Assembly: GCA_016219705.1 (NCBI GenBank)
Contig: JACRKQ010000062.1
Span: 1 to 35,857, forward strand
Length of the DNA: 35,857 nt
From: Candidatus Saganbacteria bacterium
Lineage (GTDB): Bacteria; Margulisbacteria; WOR-1; O2-12-FULL-45-9
Direction: 5' to 3'
Position 1 is the stretch's first letter. Each line of letters begins with the position of its first letter. The notes under the pieces are model-generated. The model was given only the letters and a program-made list of their open reading frames with translations, was not told the origin of the DNA and did no database searches. The translations under genes and the position numbers were made by a program. This document shows, piece after piece, positions 1 through 7,623 of this stretch.

Positions 1-298
1 ATGATCTTCCCCTCCTTGGCTCTATGACTGTTTATATATACGCACTATAGACCTTATTTTCGTCAATGTCAAATTGTTAAATGGCTTATTTAGACGGCAA
101 TTTATGGACTATGTAGATTTAATTATGCGCACCTATATAGTAATAGTAAAAGCGGAACCTTCTGGGCCAATCCTCCACCCGACCTCTCTATTTTCATCCA
201 AATACCACTTCGCAGGATAAGTTACTGAAAATCCAGCTTTGCTCACATAAGTTTTCATTTCTTGGGTCGCTGACTGGGAGACGTCATCTTTTGCAACC

Positions 299-436
299 TC
301 ATTTTTTTTTAATTCCTAATTGTTTTGCTGGCCTCGAACCCATGGCGTAAACGGCGGACCCCGATGATATTATCGGGGCAAGTAGTGAACAGAGAACAGT
401 GGACAGGATCATAAACACAAATAATTTTTTACTCAT
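299..436 (-). CDS. Small hypothetical secreted peptide, 45 aa as written. It is possibly the N-terminal part of a longer protein of about 100 aa, because the reading frame is interrupted at an A9 tract (plus-strand T9 at 302-310).
   Basis: The minus-strand ATG at 436 encodes MSKKLFVFMILSTVLCSLLAPIISSGSAVYA..., a signal-peptide-like hydrophobic N-terminus. The frame ends directly after the poly-A run. The +1 frame stays open down to a TAG at 133-135 and contains a second ATG (MKTYVSKAGF...). Not in the supplied ORF track because it is under 60 aa. Confidence 0.25.
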   Translation of the reverse strand: MSKKLFVFMILSTVLCSLLAPIISSGSAVYAMGSRPAKQLGIKKK

Positions 437-460
437 CGAAACACGCCTCTTTTCTAATCA

Positions 461-580
461 ATGTTACATTAAGTTACACAATGTTACCTGATGTTACGTG
501 ATGTTACAAAATTTGCAATTTCAAACAACTTTAAGTAACTTCATGCAACTTTAGGTAACCCTCTGTAACCGATTGTAACT
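461..580. repeat. Phased pentamer array. Five GTTAC units start at 463, 473, 483, 493 and 503. They are followed by G(T/C)AAC units in the opposite orientation at 535, 545, 555, 565 and 575, with degenerate units at 515 and 525. All are spaced at exactly 10 bp.
   Basis: Read directly: atgttacatt aagttacaca atgttacctg atgttacgtg atgttacaaa | atttgcaatt tcaaacaact ttaagtaact tcatgcaact ttaggtaacc ctctgtaacc gattgtaact. The right arm also encodes the last ~13 codons of murD. Confidence 0.6.
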
Positions 581-1863
581 AATTTTTTAAAAACTCTTCC
601 CCGCTCTTCATAATTGTCAAACATGTCAAAACTGGAGCAAGCCGGAGATAATAATACGATATCGCCAGGCTGGGCGAATTTTGCCGACAGCGCTACCGCA
701 TCGGCCAGAGAGCTTGCCGGATGGATTGCTGAAAACCCAACTGACGTCAGCGCTGCGCGGAAACGGCCGGCCGCTTCGCCGATTAGAATTACCGCCCGGA
801 CATTTTGCTTGATTTTTTCAACCAGCTTGTCCAGTGAAACTCCTTTATCCCTGCCGCCGAGGATTAAAATGATTTTTTTATTATTAAATGTTTCCAGCGC
901 GACTAGGGTCGAATCCGGATTTGTCGCCTTGGAATCATTGTAATATTCCACCCCGTTAATTTTAGCAACGAATTCAATCCGGTGTTCCACCCCAGGAAAA
1001 GTTTTTAAAACATCAGCCACCTGTTTTGGACTTACACCACAGAGATAAGCGGCTTGAGCCGCCGCCAAAGCATTAGATAGATTATGACGACCCGGAATTT
1101 TAATTTCGGCCGGCGATAAGGCGATGATTGCGGTTTGTTTTAAGCTAAAACCAATTAATTTAGCGCCTGATTTTTGCGCCATTTTCACGACATCCGAGTC
1201 GTCCAGATTATAAATAATGTAATCGTCACCCGATTGGTTCATAAAAATTCTGGCCTTTTGGTTAATATATGATTCCAGGCTGCCGTGACGCTCCAGATGG
1301 TCGGGCTGAATATTTAAGATCACGCTGACCCAGGGCTTAAACTTATCAATAGTTTCTAATTGATAACTGCTGACTTCAACCACAATATAATCCAAATTTG
1401 TGTCAGCAACTTCAATAAGAGGCAAGCCAATGTTACCGGCAATGGCGATTTTCTTTCCTCCGGCCCGCAACATTTCCCCAATTAATGTTGTTGTTGTCGT
1501 CTTGCCATTGGTGCCGGTGATGGCGATAATCGGTTTCGTCAGCAGGCGAGCGGCCAATTCAATTTCTGAAATGATCGGGATGCCTTTTTCTTGCGCTTTT
1601 TTCAAGACGGGAATATCCAGGTGAACCCCCGGGCTGACGACAATTAATTCGGCTTTCTCAATCGCCTTGTCGGAGTGGCCGCCAAATTCTGATTTTATAC
1701 CTAAAGTATTTAATTCATTTATTATGGCTGGATCAATTTGTTCAGATAGTCGTCTTTCGGAAACAAAAACATTAGCGTTTAATTTAATTAAACGGCGAGC
1801 GGCGGCCAGGCCGCTTTTGGCCAGACCGAAAATAGAAACCCTCTTATTGCTAAATTGATACAT
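541..1863 (-). CDS. murD: UDP-N-acetylmuramoylalanine--D-glutamate ligase
   Basis: 440 aa. Mur-ligase P-loop GTNGKTTTTTLIGEML. C-terminal FDMFDNYEERG motif typical of MurD. Confidence 0.9.
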   Translation of the reverse strand: MYQFSNKRVSIFGLAKSGLAAARRLIKLNANVFVSERRLSEQIDPAIINELNTLGIKSEFGGHSDKAIEKAELIVVSPGVHLDIPVLKKAQEKGIPIISEIELAARLLTKPIIAITGTNGKTTTTTLIGEMLRAGGKKIAIAGNIGLPLIEVADTNLDYIVVEVSSYQLETIDKFKPWVSVILNIQPDHLERHGSLESYINQKARIFMNQSGDDYIIYNLDDSDVVKMAQKSGAKLIGFSLKQTAIIALSPAEIKIPGRHNLSNALAAAQAAYLCGVSPKQVADVLKTFPGVEHRIEFVAKINGVEYYNDSKATNPDSTLVALETFNNKKIILILGGRDKGVSLDKLVEKIKQNVRAVILIGEAAGRFRAALTSVGFSAIHPASSLADAVALSAKFAQPGDIVLLSPACSSFDMFDNYEERGRVFKKLVTIGYRGLPKVA

Positions 1864-1994
1864 TTTTTAAATCCTAAATTCTAAATACTAAATTCTAAAC
1901 AAATTCTAAATACTAAATTGTAATTTCTAAATGCAAATATTTTGATCATTTGGGTTTATTATTTGTTTAGGATTTAGAGTTTCGGATTTAGAAT
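1864..1994. repeat. AT-rich intergenic palindromic repeat between mraY and murD. It has direct AAATTCTAAAT(A/C) units and their inverted copies.
   Basis: atcctaaattctaaatactaaattctaaacaaattctaaatactaaattgtaatttctaaat ... atttgtttaggatttagagtttcggatttagaattt. The right half is the reverse complement of the left-half units. Confidence 0.5.
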
Positions 1995-2903
1995 TTATAG
2001 AAACACTCCAACCAACCCCAAAAACACCGCTACCACCCAAAATCCTAGCACAATCTCTTTTTCCTTAAAGCCTAATAATTCAAAATGGTGATGCAGAGGT
2101 GACATTTTAAAAACACGCCGCTTAAATAATTTATAAATCGTCACCTGGATAATGACCGATAGAGTTTCAATGACAAAAATTCCGCCGATGACGCTCAATC
2201 TGATTTCAGCCTGCATTATCAAGGCTAATCCGGCCAGAGCCGCCCCGATCGCCAGTGAGCCAACATCTCCCATAAAAACTTGAGCTTTGGGAAAATTATA
2301 ATAAAGAAAGGCGAAAATCGAGCCGGCGGCAATCAGAGCAAAAGTTGCGGCGTCCGCCTGGCCAATTTTTAGGCCTAATAAGGCCATGGCTAGAAAAGCA
2401 ATCCCCCCTGTCCCCGCCAATAAGCCGTTTAAACCATCGGTTAAATTTGCGGCGTTAGCCCCGCCCACCACCACAAAAACCGCGAACAAAAAATATAGAA
2501 TTTGAGATTGATGAGTCCCAGGTAAAAAAAACACAAAAACGGCGGCAGCGACAATTTGGCTAATCAGTTTCTGCCAGAAAGTCAGGCCAAGATTTTGCTT
2601 GCGGATAATTATCAGCAAATCATCCAGCAGCCCGATTAGCGCAAAGGCCATTGTCAATAATATCAACGCCAGATAGCGCCAGTCGAATTCGTAATTAATA
2701 AAAATTATGGATAGAATGATTGTCGCGAGAATAAAACCGAGGCCAGCCATTGTCGGCGTTCCGGCTTTGGCTTGGTGCGACGCGGGTCCTTCCGCCCGGA
2801 TTGTCTGATTTGCCTTTAACCACTTAAGCGCGAAAACGAGAGGATATGTAAGCAACCAGGAAATAATCGCGGCTAGAAAAAATAATACTGCTGCCCAACC
2901 CAT
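1995..2903 (-). CDS. mraY: Phospho-N-acetylmuramoyl-pentapeptide transferase
   Basis: 302 aa polytopic membrane protein. Motifs NAANLTDGLNGL and MSPLHHHFE are characteristic of MraY. Confidence 0.85.
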   Translation of the reverse strand: MGWAAVLFFLAAIISWLLTYPLVFALKWLKANQTIRAEGPASHQAKAGTPTMAGLGFILATIILSIIFINYEFDWRYLALILLTMAFALIGLLDDLLIIIRKQNLGLTFWQKLISQIVAAAVFVFFLPGTHQSQILYFLFAVFVVVGGANAANLTDGLNGLLAGTGGIAFLAMALLGLKIGQADAATFALIAAGSIFAFLYYNFPKAQVFMGDVGSLAIGAALAGLALIMQAEIRLSVIGGIFVIETLSVIIQVTIYKLFKRRVFKMSPLHHHFELLGFKEKEIVLGFWVVAVFLGLVGVFL

Positions 2904-2931
2904 TTTGTTATTCTAACATTTTATAGAGGAT

Positions 2932-2967
2932 AAAAAAAGCCTTCCGATAGATCATCAGAAGGCTTTT
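2932..2967 (-). terminator. Rho-independent terminator-like hairpin downstream of the 168-aa secreted-protein gene. It could act in both directions.
   Basis: AAAAAAA GCCTTC [13-nt loop] GAAGGC TTTT. On the minus strand the stem is followed by TTTTTTTATCC. Confidence 0.5.
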
Positions 2968-2975
2968 AAGTGGAC

Positions 2976-3482
2976 TTACAGCGTATAAGAAGCCGAAAGA
3001 TTTACTCCGCTGGTTAGACCGACCACTGATGCGCCAACAGCTCCAATGCCGAGGATGCCTGTTGTCGTTGTGGCGCCGGCTGAAAGAGAGTTAAACAAAA
3101 TAAAATCAGCGCCAAGCGAAAAATTTGCCGCAACTTTTGTGCTAAGTCCATAGGTCAGTCCTAGTACGGTTGTTGCTGCCGCCGCGCCGTTGGATGAATA
3201 AAACAATCCCATATTCGATTGTACTTCTCCAACTTTTTGCAGATTATAATCGACTTTTATCAAGTAGGCCGTGCTTGAAGCTCCGCCCCCGCTGGCATAA
3301 GAAGCTCCGAGTTGTCCTGTCATATCTCTATTAAAACTATACTGCAGCGTAGGGAAGCCTAAAGCGGTTCCAATGGCAAGACCACCACGGTTATCCATTG
3401 CCATCGGAGCTGTTTTTGGAGCGGCTGCAAATGCCGTTGTTCCAATAACAATAACCACTAATAATAATACGATTTTTTTCAT
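2976..3482 (-). CDS. Hypothetical secreted Gly/Ala/Ser/Thr-rich protein, possibly a beta-strand-rich outer-membrane protein
   Basis: N-terminal signal peptide MKKIVLLLVVIVIGTTAFAAAP. The mature part shows an alternating hydrophobic/small-residue pattern. Confidence 0.45.
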   Translation of the reverse strand: MKKIVLLLVVIVIGTTAFAAAPKTAPMAMDNRGGLAIGTALGFPTLQYSFNRDMTGQLGASYASGGGASSTAYLIKVDYNLQKVGEVQSNMGLFYSSNGAAAATTVLGLTYGLSTKVAANFSLGADFILFNSLSAGATTTTGILGIGAVGASVVGLTSGVNLSASYTL

Positions 3483-4448: not shown

Positions 4449-6077
4449 ATGAAGATCACACCGGTCTATCTCTGCATTCTCGATGGTTTCGCCATCGGGC
4501 GGCAAAACGATAGCAACGCGATTTATAGGGCGATAAAAATCGGCCAGGCTGATTTTTTTAAAGAACTTTTTGCGACGCGTCCATATGCGAAATTAGAATG
4601 TTTTGGCCCGGCTGTCGGCCTGCCGGCCGGCACTATGGGAAATTCAGAAGTCAATCATCTCAATATGGGCGCCGGACGGGTTGTCTATCAATCGATTGAA
4701 AGAATTAACGTCGCGATTGCAGACGGCAGTTTTTTTACCAACGAGGCTTTGACCACGGCGATTAATAACTGTCAGAAAAATAGTTCCGCTTTACATCTAA
4801 TGGGAATTCTTCAGGGGCATGGCGGGACAGTGCATGGCAGCATTAAGCATCTTTTTGCCCTGCTTGAGCTGGCCAAAAAAACAAAATTGAAAACAGTTTA
4901 TCTTCATCTTTTCACCGATGGCCGCGACACTAATCCCAGAGCTGCGGGAGAAATATATTTACAGATGCTGGAAGAAAAAATTGCGGAGCTGGGACTGGGA
5001 GAAATTGTCAAGATTGCCACGATCATGGGCCGTGAGCTGGCCATGGATCGCGATACGGCCTGGGACAAAACTCTATTGGCCATGAAAGCGCTGGTTAACG
5101 GCCTGGGCGAACGCCAAGCCGGCTTTGCCCGCGCAGCCATCGCAAACGCTTATAAACGTGGGGAGACGGATGAATTTATCCGTCCGACAATTATTGGCGG
5201 CTACCCCGGCATGAGCGCGGTCGATTCGGTCATCTATTTTAATTATCGTCAGGATCGCACTATCCAACTGGCAACAGCCTTCTGCGAAACTGATAAAGTC
5301 TTTTTTAATTACAAAAAAGGGAGCAAACCGATCGATGAAGTTATTTATAATGAGATCCAGTCTTGGCGCGGTAAAATTAAAAACCTGGTCTTTGTGGCGA
5401 TGACAGAATATTATCCGGGACTTCATGGGTTCACGGCTTTCCCGGAAAAAGAAATTCCCAATACGGTTGGAGAGATTGTCTCCCAGGCTGGATTAAAACA
5501 ATTGCGCTTGGCCGGCCCGGAAAAATTTGCCCATGTCACCGGCTGGTTCTCTGGGCGACGGGCAACTCCCTTCCCGGGCGAAGACCGCTATTTAGCGCAA
5601 GACGCGGAGTTAAAAAATAAAACCGACCAGGGCAAACATTATGACTGGGCTCCGGAGATGACGGCTTATCTGGAAACTGATTATGCGCTGCAAGCGATCG
5701 CCGCGAAGCAATATTCCCTGATCGTCCACAATTTTCAAAATGGCGATATGGTTGGGCATACCGGTAATTTAGCGGCGGCCGCGGCGGCGATTGGCCATCT
5801 GAACAAATGTGTTAGGCGGCTCGCTTCGGCCTGGATTAATCAAGGCGGGATTTTTATTATCACGGCGGATCATGGCAACGCTGATGAGATGGAATTGGCG
5901 CAAAACGGCCAGGAAGTCGTCAGCACGCAGCATTCGCTCAACCCTGTCCCCTGCTGGGTTTTGGGTAGAGAGGGGAACTTAAAGGCTGACGGTATTATCC
6001 CAGACGTTGGCGTTACAATTTTAGACCTGATGGGGCTGCCCAAATCAGATGATATGACGGCCCAATCTTTATTATGA
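4449..6077 (+). CDS. gpmI: 2,3-bisphosphoglycerate-independent phosphoglycerate mutase
   Basis: 542 aa. The N-terminal region PVYLCILDGFAIG and the overall length fit the iPGM family. Confidence 0.85.
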   Translation: MKITPVYLCILDGFAIGRQNDSNAIYRAIKIGQADFFKELFATRPYAKLECFGPAVGLPAGTMGNSEVNHLNMGAGRVVYQSIERINVAIADGSFFTNEALTTAINNCQKNSSALHLMGILQGHGGTVHGSIKHLFALLELAKKTKLKTVYLHLFTDGRDTNPRAAGEIYLQMLEEKIAELGLGEIVKIATIMGRELAMDRDTAWDKTLLAMKALVNGLGERQAGFARAAIANAYKRGETDEFIRPTIIGGYPGMSAVDSVIYFNYRQDRTIQLATAFCETDKVFFNYKKGSKPIDEVIYNEIQSWRGKIKNLVFVAMTEYYPGLHGFTAFPEKEIPNTVGEIVSQAGLKQLRLAGPEKFAHVTGWFSGRRATPFPGEDRYLAQDAELKNKTDQGKHYDWAPEMTAYLETDYALQAIAAKQYSLIVHNFQNGDMVGHTGNLAAAAAAIGHLNKCVRRLASAWINQGGIFIITADHGNADEMELAQNGQEVVSTQHSLNPVPCWVLGREGNLKADGIIPDVGVTILDLMGLPKSDDMTAQSLL

Positions 6078-6636: not shown

Positions 6637-7623
6637 TTACGACGCCAGCATTTTCGCCAGCTTATAAGTCGCCAGATCGATTTTCTTTGTGCGGCGGATG
6701 ACCTCGGCCATTGGGGTTTCAATAATTTTGTCAGAAGAGATCCCTACCAAAAAACTACTTTTGCCGGCGATCAGTAATTCCACCGCCCTGGCGCCCAGCT
6801 TGCAGGCGACTTCGCGCGACAGCGCCGATGGCGCGCCGCCCCGCTGGATATAGCCGAGGATGCTGACTCGGACATCAAGAGCAATCTTTTTAGTTAAATA
6901 ATCAGCCACTTCCCTGGCGGAAGCCGCCCCTTCGGCTACAACGACGATAAAACTTGATTTGCCGCGCTGTTGTCCCTGGCGCAATGTTCTGACAATTTCA
7001 TCCAGGTTAAAATTAATCTCCGGAATCAGGATCGCTTCTGCGCCGCAGACTAAACCGACATCGAGAGCAATAAAACCATTATTGCGTCCCATGACCTCGA
7101 TCACAAACACTCTTTCATGCGAGGTGGCCGTATCTCTGATTTTATCGATCGCGTTAACCGCCGTATTGACAGCGGTGTCAAAACCGATGCTGTAATCGGT
7201 GCCAAAAATATCATTATCAATTGAAGCCGGAACATTGATCACCGGCAGGCCAGATTCCTGATTAAGAGCATAAGCCGCGCGCAGCGAGCCATCGCCGCCA
7301 ATTGCCACCAAACCATCGATATTGTAAGCGGCCAGATTGGCATAAGCTTTTTTACGCGCAGGCTTTTGGCGAAATTCAGGACAGCGATGGGTATGTAAAA
7401 TAGTGCCGCCATGATTGATGATGCCGCCGACAGAACTTAATTCCATTTTAATAATTTTATTTTCAATTAAACCCTGCCAGCCGCGCTCGATCCCGTAAAC
7501 TTTGCGGCTGTTAAAAATGGCCGTCCTTACCACAGAGCGGATGGCGGCATTCATTCCCGGGGCGTCCCCTCCGGGAGTCACGATCGCGATGGTCTTTATT
7601 TTTTTGTTTTTCACGTCCATCAC
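6637..7623 (-). CDS. pfkA: ATP-dependent 6-phosphofructokinase
   Basis: 328 aa with GGDGS and MGR motifs. Overall PFK-A family features. Confidence 0.9.
   Translation of the reverse strand: MMDVKNKKIKTIAIVTPGGDAPGMNAAIRSVVRTAIFNSRKVYGIERGWQGLIENKIIKMELSSVGGIINHGGTILHTHRCPEFRQKPARKKAYANLAAYNIDGLVAIGGDGSLRAAYALNQESGLPVINVPASIDNDIFGTDYSIGFDTAVNTAVNAIDKIRDTATSHERVFVIEVMGRNNGFIALDVGLVCGAEAILIPEINFNLDEIVRTLRQGQQRGKSSFIVVVAEGAASAREVADYLTKKIALDVRVSILGYIQRGGAPSALSREVACKLGARAVELLIAGKSSFLVGISSDKIIETPMAEVIRRTKKIDLATYKLAKMLAS

Follow-up and report, generated by a model that had tools for sequence, protein, structure and literature searches.

This text concerns a 120-bp inverted array of pentamers, GTTAC in one arm and GTAAC in the other with a repeat of exactly 10 bp, found at positions 461–580 of a contig from a metagenome-assembled genome (MAG) of Candidatus Saganbacteria, and its relation to several classes of bacterial repeat that have been described previously. 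The contig, complete at 35,857 bp, is referred to throughout as the window, and statements made here about the genome as a whole are limited to these 35.8 kb. The view reached below is that the array is probably, though by no means certainly, a member lacking an open reading frame (ORF) of a dispersed family of hairpin-forming palindromic repeats, resembling both the intervening sequences (IVSs) of 23S rRNA and STRRs (short tandemly repeated repetitive sequences) and lodged at an operon junction, rather than a dedicated operator.

The 7-bp STRRs of cyanobacteria form hairpins between hupS and hupL, for which roles in transcript stability or in translational coupling have been proposed (PMC2670836), while in Xanthomonas there are about 70 convergent pairs of GGGAATC heptamers, most of them transcribed (PMC4692102); according to its citation in PMC7593598, an STRR was also reported in RNase P RNA by Vioque in 1997. 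In common with the array studied here, these repeats consist of short intergenic tandem units, often placed within operons (as at hupS–hupL and pecE–pecF), and frequently of two convergent runs able to form a stem-loop (PMC2670836, PMC4692102); they are also mostly transcribed, and the length of the repeat varies between strains at a position that is itself kept. The window contains two arrays, at 461–580 and at 1865–1997, that answer to the general description of paired convergent tandem repeats (units of 5–11 nt, intergenic, in two convergent runs capable of forming a stem-loop), and the second of these, which is built of heptamers, fits the description of STRRs directly. Saganbacteria are a sister lineage of Cyanobacteria. 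The array at 461–580 differs from the STRR and Xanthomonas repeats in that it has 10-bp units with five conserved positions where near-perfect heptamers would be expected, and in that it is not G-rich and could form no G-quadruplex; the family to which it belongs is found in Omnitrophota, Planctomycetota and Saganbacteria.

In Beggiatoaceae, Cyanobacteria and Bacteroidetes, genes that are unrelated to one another have runs of TAACTGA immediately upstream of their start codons (PMC4679880). These runs share with the present family an intergenic position a few nucleotides before a start codon, the lack of a functional theme among the genes downstream, insertions and deletions of unit size, and a patchy distribution pointing to horizontal spread, for which no vehicle is known (PMC4679880), but they are short (2–6 copies), perfect, and almost all direct (one indirect set among 170 in BOGUAY).

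The IVSs of 23S rRNA are regarded as selfish and are sporadic in occurrence, their terminal inverted repeats forming a stem that is cut by RNase III; some of them contain the S23p ORF, the family of which is PF05635, and Ralph and McClelland proposed that this ORF aids mobility (PMC4990558). The family is homologous to Avd, the accessory protein of diversity-generating retroelements (PMC10053308), and genes belonging to it have been seen in between cas genes (PMC3936711) and within rRNA insertions of the candidate phyla radiation (10.1101/2024.02.27.582315). The likeness to the arrays described here lies in an inverted-repeat stem around an optional PF05635 ORF, in the coexistence of ORF-less and ORF-bearing forms, and in a sporadic distribution suggestive of horizontal transfer, the IVS being deemed selfish and its tolerance by the host being attributed to RNase III processing of the stem (PMC4990558; 10.1101/2024.02.27.582315). 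The differences are that the elements studied here lie between protein-coding cistrons and not in rRNA helices, that their stems are periodic tandem arrays and not unique inverted repeats, and that the copy in the window has no ORF.

Elements of the ERIC, Correia/NEMIS and REP/BIME/REPIN types are likewise imperfect palindromes of roughly 100 bp, present at many unrelated intergenic sites, within transcription units and in either orientation. Some of these elements undergo processing by RNase III or influence the stability of mRNA. A discussion of Correia elements can be found in PMC4853749. These families do not, however, show the internal tandem periodicity, the turnover of unit number or the depletion at convergent gene junctions that are described below, while in the present family neither a target-site duplication, nor a defined terminus, nor a parent transposase or RAYT has been detected. 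A possible analogy of a quite different kind is with the arrays read by proteins that oligomerise, ribbon-helix-helix (RHH) proteins among them (omega heptads, ParR–parC, MetJ and MraZ boxes), where the omega, ParR, MetJ and MraZ proteins read tandem units of 7–11 bp, cooperatively and in both direct and inverted orientation; such arrays, however, adjoin and regulate a cognate gene or operon, whereas those studied here are scattered at unrelated operon junctions with no such gene adjacent.

The array at the 3′ end of murD

On the forward strand, exact GTTAC pentamers start at 463, 473, 483, 493 and 503, and these constitute arm A (463–507). They are followed by a second run of units, GCAAT at 515, ACAAC at 525, GTAAC at 535, GCAAC at 545 and GTAAC at 555, 565 and 575, of which five fit G(T/C)AAC, or seven if the two degenerate inner units are counted. 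The last five form arm B (535–579), the reverse complement of the arm A units; on the minus strand, which is the transcribed one, arm B is the 5′ arm (GTTAC/GTTGC) and arm A the 3′ arm (five GTAAC), while the degenerate but in-phase units (515–519 and 525–529) belong to a central region and loop (508–534) corresponding to the apical part of the predicted hairpin. A three-unit pattern has four matches in the window, all of them within the array, against 0.00 expected from 100 dinucleotide-preserving shuffles; no second GTTAC-N5-GTTAC pair is present outside the array anywhere in the contig, and an independent Logan assembly carries the identical array sequence. The 10-bp-phased dyad that had been described in an earlier, sequence-only reading of this stretch is thus real, although the further claim that all of its half-sites lie on one face of the helix holds only within each arm. 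Between the arms the phase differs, the pentamers starting at 3 modulo 10 in one and at 5 modulo 10 in the other, an offset of 2 bp or about 70 degrees, and across the family as a whole the arms are separated by anything between 1 and 33 nt, no phase being missing.

The 5-nt spacers of the window array are not conserved, yet they are partly complementary, and for this reason the whole element at 461–580 is predicted to form a hairpin (RNA fold of about 120 nt, −40.9 kcal/mol, z −5.9). Being a 117-bp dyad with no ORF, it is small, non-coding and equipped with terminal inverted repeats, as is a miniature inverted-repeat transposable element (MITE), and its predicted fold provides the long stem of terminal inverted repeats that is typical of an IVS; there is no ORF between the arms, and hence no PF05635 ORF in the loop. 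Apart from this array and that at 1865–1997, the contig has no long inverted repeats. The period of 10 bp, the 5-nt “spacers” and the absence of cas genes from the window all bear out the earlier statement that this is not a CRISPR (clustered regularly interspaced short palindromic repeat) array, in which repeats of 23–47 bp would alternate with unique spacers of about equal length, usually in the company of cas genes.

The array writes the 3′ end of murD (541–1863, minus strand; 440 residues, with the Pfam domains MurD-like_N, Mur_ligase_M and Mur_ligase_C), its last 12 codons (VTIGYRGLPKVA, 544–579) and its stop codon TGA (541–543) being read from arm B, much as the sequence-only reading had it. 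A comparison of MurD C-termini in relatives, which had been suggested at the same time, shows the repeat-encoded tail to be lineage-specific: it is unique among 120 sequences, the other 119 of the closest MurD homologues all lacking it and terminating 6–12 residues past the conserved ERGRVFK motif. On its other side the array lies, as had also been noted, upstream of a small minus-strand ORF for a signal-peptide protein of 45 residues (299–454 including the Shine-Dalgarno sequence). The 25 bp from the array edge to the ATG of this next cistron have room only for the Shine-Dalgarno sequence (a match of the form GAAAAGAGG at 454–446, then nine nucleotides and the ATG at 436, with the TGA at 299–301).

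The upstream cistron in the same operon is mraY (1995–2903, minus strand; 302 residues, PF00953), and it is from here to murD that the second inverted periodic array extends. With its 7-bp units (1865–1997; on the minus strand about four of CTAAATC type and then eight to nine of TTTAGWA type, up to the murD ATG) it occupies the entire 131-bp gap between the mraY stop codon (1995–1997) and the murD ATG (1863). Its arms (1863–1910 and 1955–2002) are 79% complementary, and its RNA fold is predicted at −25.3 kcal/mol (z −3.5). In the three nearest relatives examined, whose MurD is 65–75% identical, mraY either overlaps murD or is separated from it by 14 bp, and murD in turn either overlaps ftsW or directly precedes it; arrays at the mraY–murD and post-murD junctions were not seen in any of the three, and Tandem Repeats Finder, run on the closest of them (L242), detected none.

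A dispersed family of inverted periodic arrays

Four GTTAC units at 10-bp spacing, for which we estimate a chance expectation of about one match (20 specified bases), were found at no fewer than 120 loci in the genome collection and again at no fewer than 120 in the viral collection, and the taxonomic breadth given by these two scans is a lower bound. Most of the matches listed are perfect 10-bp tandem repeats, while about 50 have variable spacers like those of the window. Among the latter an architecture recurs that consists of (GTTAC-N5) ×3–7, a loop of 1–33 nt and (GTAAC-N5) ×3–7; it was seen at 16 or more loci of Omnitrophota as well as in Planctomycetota/Brocadiia and in unclassified MAGs, a single genome often having several copies, and overall it is present at more than 100 loci in uncultured bacteria. 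A convergent pattern with 30 specified bases gave 83 metagenome loci and no viral contigs. Where arrays had not been selected for having a partner (genome set, variable spacers), there were 18 convergent partners as against 2 divergent ones, while viral arrays had none. The viral GTTAC arrays form a different class, made up of direct iteron-like runs or of perfect repeats.

The family unit is GTTAC followed by an A-rich variable half, with A at 38–49% in positions 6–9, G or A at position 10, and C at 10–14%. The two arms tend to have equal numbers of units (mode 5+5; mean difference 0.69 against 1.05 when shuffled, p 0.0005), and 30 members of the family, when folded, gave a mean of −35 kcal/mol (z −6.6) and in 25 cases a single unbranched hairpin. 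Pairing between the spacers of opposite arms is, however, no better in the mirrored register (2.40 of 5 positions) than in registers shifted by one or two units (2.41–2.51), from which it follows that spacer complementarity derives from the unit consensus and not from covariation specific to a helix. Similarly, GTTGC accounts for 15 of the 22 single-mismatch core variants (A to G at position 4) and, relative to the sense strand, is divided almost evenly between the two arms (7 in the 5′ arm, 8 in the 3′ arm), so that there is no signature of wobble pairing. The idea of selection acting on an RNA helix thus received a negative answer from both tests. The excess of GTTGC, together with the A-rich and C-poor half-unit, could reflect either tolerated recognition (GTTRC) or an adenine-biased mutation process.

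Flanking genes were analysed for 57 arrays, and both flanks could be classified for 47. Junctions between co-directional genes make up 40 of these, divergent junctions 6 and convergent junctions 1; given an expectation of 14%, the chance of finding no more than one convergent junction among 47 is by our own arithmetic about 0.007. The upstream stop codon is mostly 0–15 bp from the edge of the array (68 bp at most) and in several cases is overlapped by the array by 1–20 bp, as at murD, and a Shine-Dalgarno sequence and start codon follow within 2–36 nt after it. The genes downstream are unrelated to one another, including adk, groEL, apgM, fpg, ugd, ruvB, mutS, pilT, ilvB, argH, scpA, folC and kor, among others.

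Orthologous arrays may differ by whole units, as in L252, L290 and L300 (L numbers denote individual loci), and one locus seen in two samples has 8 GTTAA units in the one (L334, 2411–2489) and 11 in the other (L335, 2381–2487), a difference of 30 bp, which is direct evidence of turnover of unit number; within the family, then, unit number varies at a locus that is itself kept. Whole arrays also recur at unrelated sites. Two from the same metagenome, beside adk (L248) and scpA (L325), are about 97% identical and lie in opposite orientation relative to transcription, and at L261 two near-identical copies 1.2 kb apart have their spacers, loop and a few flanking bases in common; most family copies differ in their spacers, and the window has just one copy in its 35.8 kb. 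The dispersal of these near-identical copies suggests that the elements are, or have been, mobile. No consistent target-site duplication was found around the window copy, L248/L325 or L261, and, as regards the other hallmark of a MITE, no transposase is associated with the family: the only gene recurrently enclosed is that of PF05635, which is not a known transposase.

Contigs bearing GTTAC arrays also carry inverted arrays of other periods. Their cores include TTTACGT, AGCGTAA and GGTTTAC at 7 bp, GGTCNNCA and ATGGAGTR at 8 bp, ATGGACNNN and TAAGGTTCC at 9 bp, and GGTTCG at 6 bp, and most of these sister arrays consist of a conserved core and variable positions; the heptad array of the window (1865–1997) belongs with them. 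Since arrays of 6-, 7-, 8- and 9-bp period share the same architecture, helical phasing at 10 bp is not the organising principle of the class. A compound array in a member of Vicinamibacterales (L009, 6376–6593) has about 4.5 units of 10-bp TAAGGTTACG, then about nine units of 9-bp TAAGGTTCC, then inverted AGGAACCCT units, which suggests that neither core nor period need stay constant along a single array.

Two other forms of the repeat may be mentioned. Direct GTTAC arrays with variable spacers lie beside DnaA boxes in a viral contig (L123, about 6990–7075) and in an Azospirillum MAG contig (L011, about 5050–5280), and direct arrays also occur inside ORFs of viral contigs (L144, L181, L212 and L222); all of these look like the iterons of replication origins, a class separate from the convergent arrays. 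In metagenome Ga0126336 (L250, L251, L253, L258, L272, L278, L303 and L314) there are satellite-like tracts of GTTACagggt/GTTACacagt with many switches of orientation over hundreds of base pairs; in this one community, then, the same core repeat takes a different and far larger form.

PF05635 genes between inverted arrays

Two Omnitrophota have a GTTAC array between whose arms lies an ORF of 133 residues belonging to PF05635 (23S_rRNA_IVP, E 1.2e-16). Homologues of this ORF were retrieved by protein similarity alone, and their flanks were then inspected. L328 and L331/L332 are orthologues of the first locus and are flanked by arrays in the same way, and there are three further, independent loci with array-flanked PF05635 genes, which lie next to priA (L333), next to a FlgD_ig gene (L334–L336) and next to cheR (L329/L330), the last being flanked by one complete array and one truncated by an insertion sequence. 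At L328, L331 and L333 there are no 10-bp arrays in 3.4 kb other than the flanking ones. Two additional PF05635 ORFs, distant members of the family and both beside arrays, came out of a profile search of all loci, one with GTTAC units (L267) and the other with heptads of GCAGTA type (L305). Homologues of the L305 protein, matching both PF22296 (bAvd) and PF05635, are very numerous (nearly 8,000 matches), and those loci that were fetched all have forward heptads upstream of the gene and inverted heptads downstream (L337 from Margulisiibacteriota, two genes from WOR-3 at L338/L339, and L340).

Taken together, inverted periodic arrays flank 10 of 10 PF05635 genes, which come from 9 independent loci, a figure that is a raw count with no formal background rate; 8 of the 10 were found by protein homology alone, while L267 and L305 came from contigs pre-selected for arrays. 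The arrays are of the decamer type (GTTAC/GTTAA) at L077, L328, L331, L333, L334, L329 and L267 and of the heptad type at L305, L337, L338/9 (with its two genes) and L340. No papers linking the PF05635 family name to heptamer or tandem repeats were found, nor is such a link mentioned in the STRR and Xanthomonas repeat papers PMC2670836 and PMC4692102, the latter of which was covered by a term search.

Two of these loci show additional features. At L329 (Planctomycetota; 1–1364 and 1417–1479) the array upstream of the PF05635 gene has had its left arm truncated by an insertion sequence with an rve transposase, and the loop and right arm that remain show homology to the complete array on the downstream side. 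At L337 (GCA_042562385.1, 2914–2940) the inverted heptad array downstream of the PF05635 gene encodes part of the signal peptide of the next ORF (…LIVLTAYCLLLSS…). Coding sequence can thus take up periodic arrays, as it has at the 3′ end of murD.

Surroundings of the array and competing explanations

The remainder of the window is housekeeping in character (iPGM, pfk, pgi, ligA, truB, rbfA-infB-nusA, groEL, radical-SAM enzymes, glycosyltransferases and a polysaccharide exporter). Response regulators and proteins of the winged-helix, LytTR and RHH types are absent from it, and so are transposases, PF05635 proteins, rep genes and cas genes. No sigma-70-like promoter was found on the minus strand in the GTTAC array or after it; DnaA-like boxes are not enriched, the closest being at 2600, and an Rfam scan of 1–3000 (E up to 1) gave only a sub-threshold match to RefA9 at 2874–2966, unrelated to the array. 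A literature search on GTTAC direct repeats turned up nothing relevant.

Some observations concern the neighbouring sequence. The 45-residue ORF stops directly after a run of nine A residues (302–310), a run that is present also in the Logan contig, while the +1 frame goes on to 133, for about 55 more codons; the frame-joined protein of 100 residues has a weak match to PsbP_2 (E 1.2e-5, under the Pfam cut-off). This break in the frame might be put down to a sequencing error, to a slippery homopolymer or to the ORF being a pseudogene. On the minus strand a near-consensus sigma-70 promoter (TTGACA-17-TATAGT) is found at 44–72, followed by AAGGAGG (1–20), and the gene that it served would begin at or past the contig end; relatives have ftsW right after murD. 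Within the heptad array there is a weak promoter-like match on the minus strand (TTTAGA-17-TAGAAT, 1931–1903).

Several further identities were considered for the array and set aside. A promoter inside it was rejected, none being found on the minus strand, as was an intrinsic terminator, none being predicted in 1–2100 and the family being nearly absent from convergent gene junctions. Iterons of a replication origin would be expected at one locus per replicon, beside an initiator gene, DnaA boxes and an AT-rich unwinding element; the window has neither a rep gene nor DnaA boxes near the array, and relatives have several arrays per contig. The idea of a tRNA or other integration site was dropped as well, since there was no sign of an integrase and the array lies inside an operon. 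MraZ boxes, which came to mind on account of the dcw cluster, are of TGGGN/GTG type, a different motif, and the family is found at unrelated operons. The GTnAC sites of EbfC/YbaB do not fit either, as a palindromic reader would not account for the strict T-versus-A polarity of the two arms. The REP/BIME/REPIN elements are imperfect palindromes of 20–40 bp with a GT(A/G)G head, found in genomes that have a RAYT (Y1 transposase), and no GTAG-headed palindrome is present in these 10-bp tandem repeats; an origin in phages or plasmids is at odds with the occurrence of the convergent pattern in 0 of 2.9 million viral contigs.

The reading that we consider probable, namely that of an ORF-less member of a dispersed hairpin-forming family, would run as follows. 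The elements consist of two inverted runs of a short tandem unit with a short loop between them, lodge at gene junctions within operons and change as entire units are gained or lost; small PF05635 genes are flanked by them in many genomes, just as the stem of an IVS flanks the S23p ORF. The Saganbacteria copy would have landed on, or grown over, the 3′ end of murD, replacing the last 12 codons and supplying the stop codon, while a sibling with 7-bp units came to separate mraY from murD. The array would be transcribed together with murD and the ORF downstream, and in the mRNA it may fold as one long imperfect hairpin (about 120 nt, about −41 kcal/mol), the base of which would set the stop codon of the upstream gene beside the ribosome-binding site of the next; such a juxtaposition would explain why insertions between cistrons are tolerated. 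By analogy with IVS stems and with Correia and ERIC elements, any effect would probably be on the processing or stability of mRNA, presumably through RNase III, and not on the initiation of transcription, and the elements themselves may be selfish or neutral.

A number of observations weigh against this reading. The depletion of arrays at convergent junctions (1 of 47) is not what purely neutral insertion would produce, and the 35.8 kb covered contain only one GTTAC array, accompanied by neither a PF05635 gene nor a transposase. No target-site duplication or defined terminus was detected, and no pair of empty and filled sites among close relatives. The arrays lack both the covariation and the sense-strand wobble signature that selection on an RNA helix would leave, and a 5-bp core that is strongly conserved next to spacers that vary has the look of something recognised by a protein rather than of mere pairing.

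It is the conserved core, the strict polarity of the arms and the lack of helix covariation that keep alive the alternative in which the arrays are read as double-stranded DNA, which we regard as a possibility, if a rather unlikely one. Here a trans-acting protein would read the GTTRC core once per helical turn and polymerise head-to-tail along each arm, the two filaments facing one another, and RNA hairpins would play no part. The protein might be the PF05635 four-helix-bundle protein of the sister elements, or a nucleoid-associated or RHH/ParR/omega-like protein, and the arrays would be loading sites spread over the genome that serve the maintenance of the element, act as roadblocks or organise chromatin. 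The exact 10-bp period, invariant 5-bp core and variable spacers would suit such a platform, as would the strict orientation (18 convergent partners to 2 divergent), spacers without register-specific pairing, core variants symmetric with respect to the transcribed strand, and the location of PF05635 genes between arrays; the mode of five units per arm might be set beside the five chains of 2GSC, the sole solved PF05635 entry, and omega, ParR, MetJ and MraZ provide precedents for the reading of tandem units of this kind. Set against this are the sister arrays of 6–9 bp, which share the architecture and show that helical phasing is not general, and the gap between arms, which has no fixed phase. 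The protein at L077 is not notably basic (by our own count, K+R is about equal to D+E), DNA-binding activity is not known for PF05635 members outside diversity-generating retroelements, and a distant member of the family (L267) is found amid the same GTTAC cores, so that protein and core do not co-vary cleanly. A broader proposal, to which we would attach a similarly low likelihood, is that inverted periodic arrays are the cis arms of a single, unrecognised kind of element whose only gene is that of PF05635, the protein recognising the units and driving their spread, homogenisation or turnover, possibly together with a reverse transcriptase, while ORF-less copies would be non-autonomous satellites. 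Such an element would cover the GTTAC decamers and the assorted heptads, and it would probably cover cyanobacterial STRRs, the GGGAATC pairs of Xanthomonas and the stems of 23S rRNA IVSs as well. The pentamer core and modal five units per arm are consistent with unit recognition by PF05635, and the A-rich hypervariable half-units and A-to-G excess in the core are suggestive of the involvement of a reverse transcriptase, by analogy with Avd in diversity-generating retroelements.

Two simpler explanations fare less well. That a short inverted repeat after murD merely expanded in place by slippage in both arms, as a functionless microsatellite with no trans-acting partner and no relation to other arrays, seems improbable to us. 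Orthologues do differ in unit number as slippage would have it, most of the GTTAC ×4 matches listed are plain perfect tandem repeats, and long simple-sequence repeats of 5–11 nt occur sporadically in bacteria (PMC4679880, in a statement that cites Mrazek 2007). However, slippage gives identical units, and subsequent drift would erode core and spacer alike, whereas in this array 9 of the 12 units have kept an intact core and it is the spacers that differ; across phyla, moreover, the same core recurs together with the same orientation and length of the arms and the same position in the genome, and near-identical whole arrays are found at unrelated loci. Least credible of all, in our judgement, is the proposal of the sequence-only reading that the array is a local cooperative site, an operator or enhancer bound by a response regulator of OmpR/PhoB or LytTR type, by a nucleoid protein or by an iteron-binding protein, which controls the gene of the small secreted protein. 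The array abuts the 5′ end of that ORF, and its direct pentamers resemble half-sites of OmpR/CpxR type, those of CpxR being for instance GTAAA-N5-GTAAA; the spacing of exactly 10 bp in each arm agrees with the 10–11 bp at which OmpR/PhoB half-sites of 5–9 bp are repeated, though not with the approximately 21 bp of LytTR, and some phage contigs have direct GTTAC arrays beside DnaA boxes (L123 and L011). Yet there is no regulator gene in the window, no promoter-like site on the minus strand in or after the array and no DnaA box nearby; the architecture, a convergent dyad of 5+5–7 units filling the gap from stop codon to ribosome-binding site, also tells against it, the convergent form is absent from viral contigs, and the genes downstream of family members have no function in common and suggest no coherent regulon. 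The same reading had named the presence of identical arrays at many unrelated loci as the finding that would tell against a local regulatory role, and at the level of the family this is what is seen: the same periodic architecture recurs at more than 100 unrelated loci beside unrelated housekeeping genes, which is why a local role is disfavoured and, on the distribution of the family, already largely refuted. Neither a gene-specific operator nor an iteron set is thus supported.

Short tandem repeats between genes that can pair as hairpins, such as STRRs, the GGGAATC pairs and runs of TAACTGA, have been known for 35 years but are unexplained, and the origin of 23S rRNA IVSs and the function of the very abundant “four helix bundle” proteins of PF05635 are equally open puzzles. 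Three results obtained here connect these puzzles, namely a decamer family with a conserved 5-bp core in several uncultured phyla, a strict positional rule that runs from stop codon through array to ribosome-binding site within operons, and the physical association of the arrays with PF05635 genes in 10 of 10 cases. For annotation, it should be borne in mind that such arrays can rewrite the 3′ end of a gene, as in murD, or encode part of a signal peptide, as at L337, and that they are not to be taken for gene-specific operators. If the association with PF05635 is causal, it would offer a testable handle, comprising both a protein and a repeat, on the origin and spread of these elements and on the function of the protein family.

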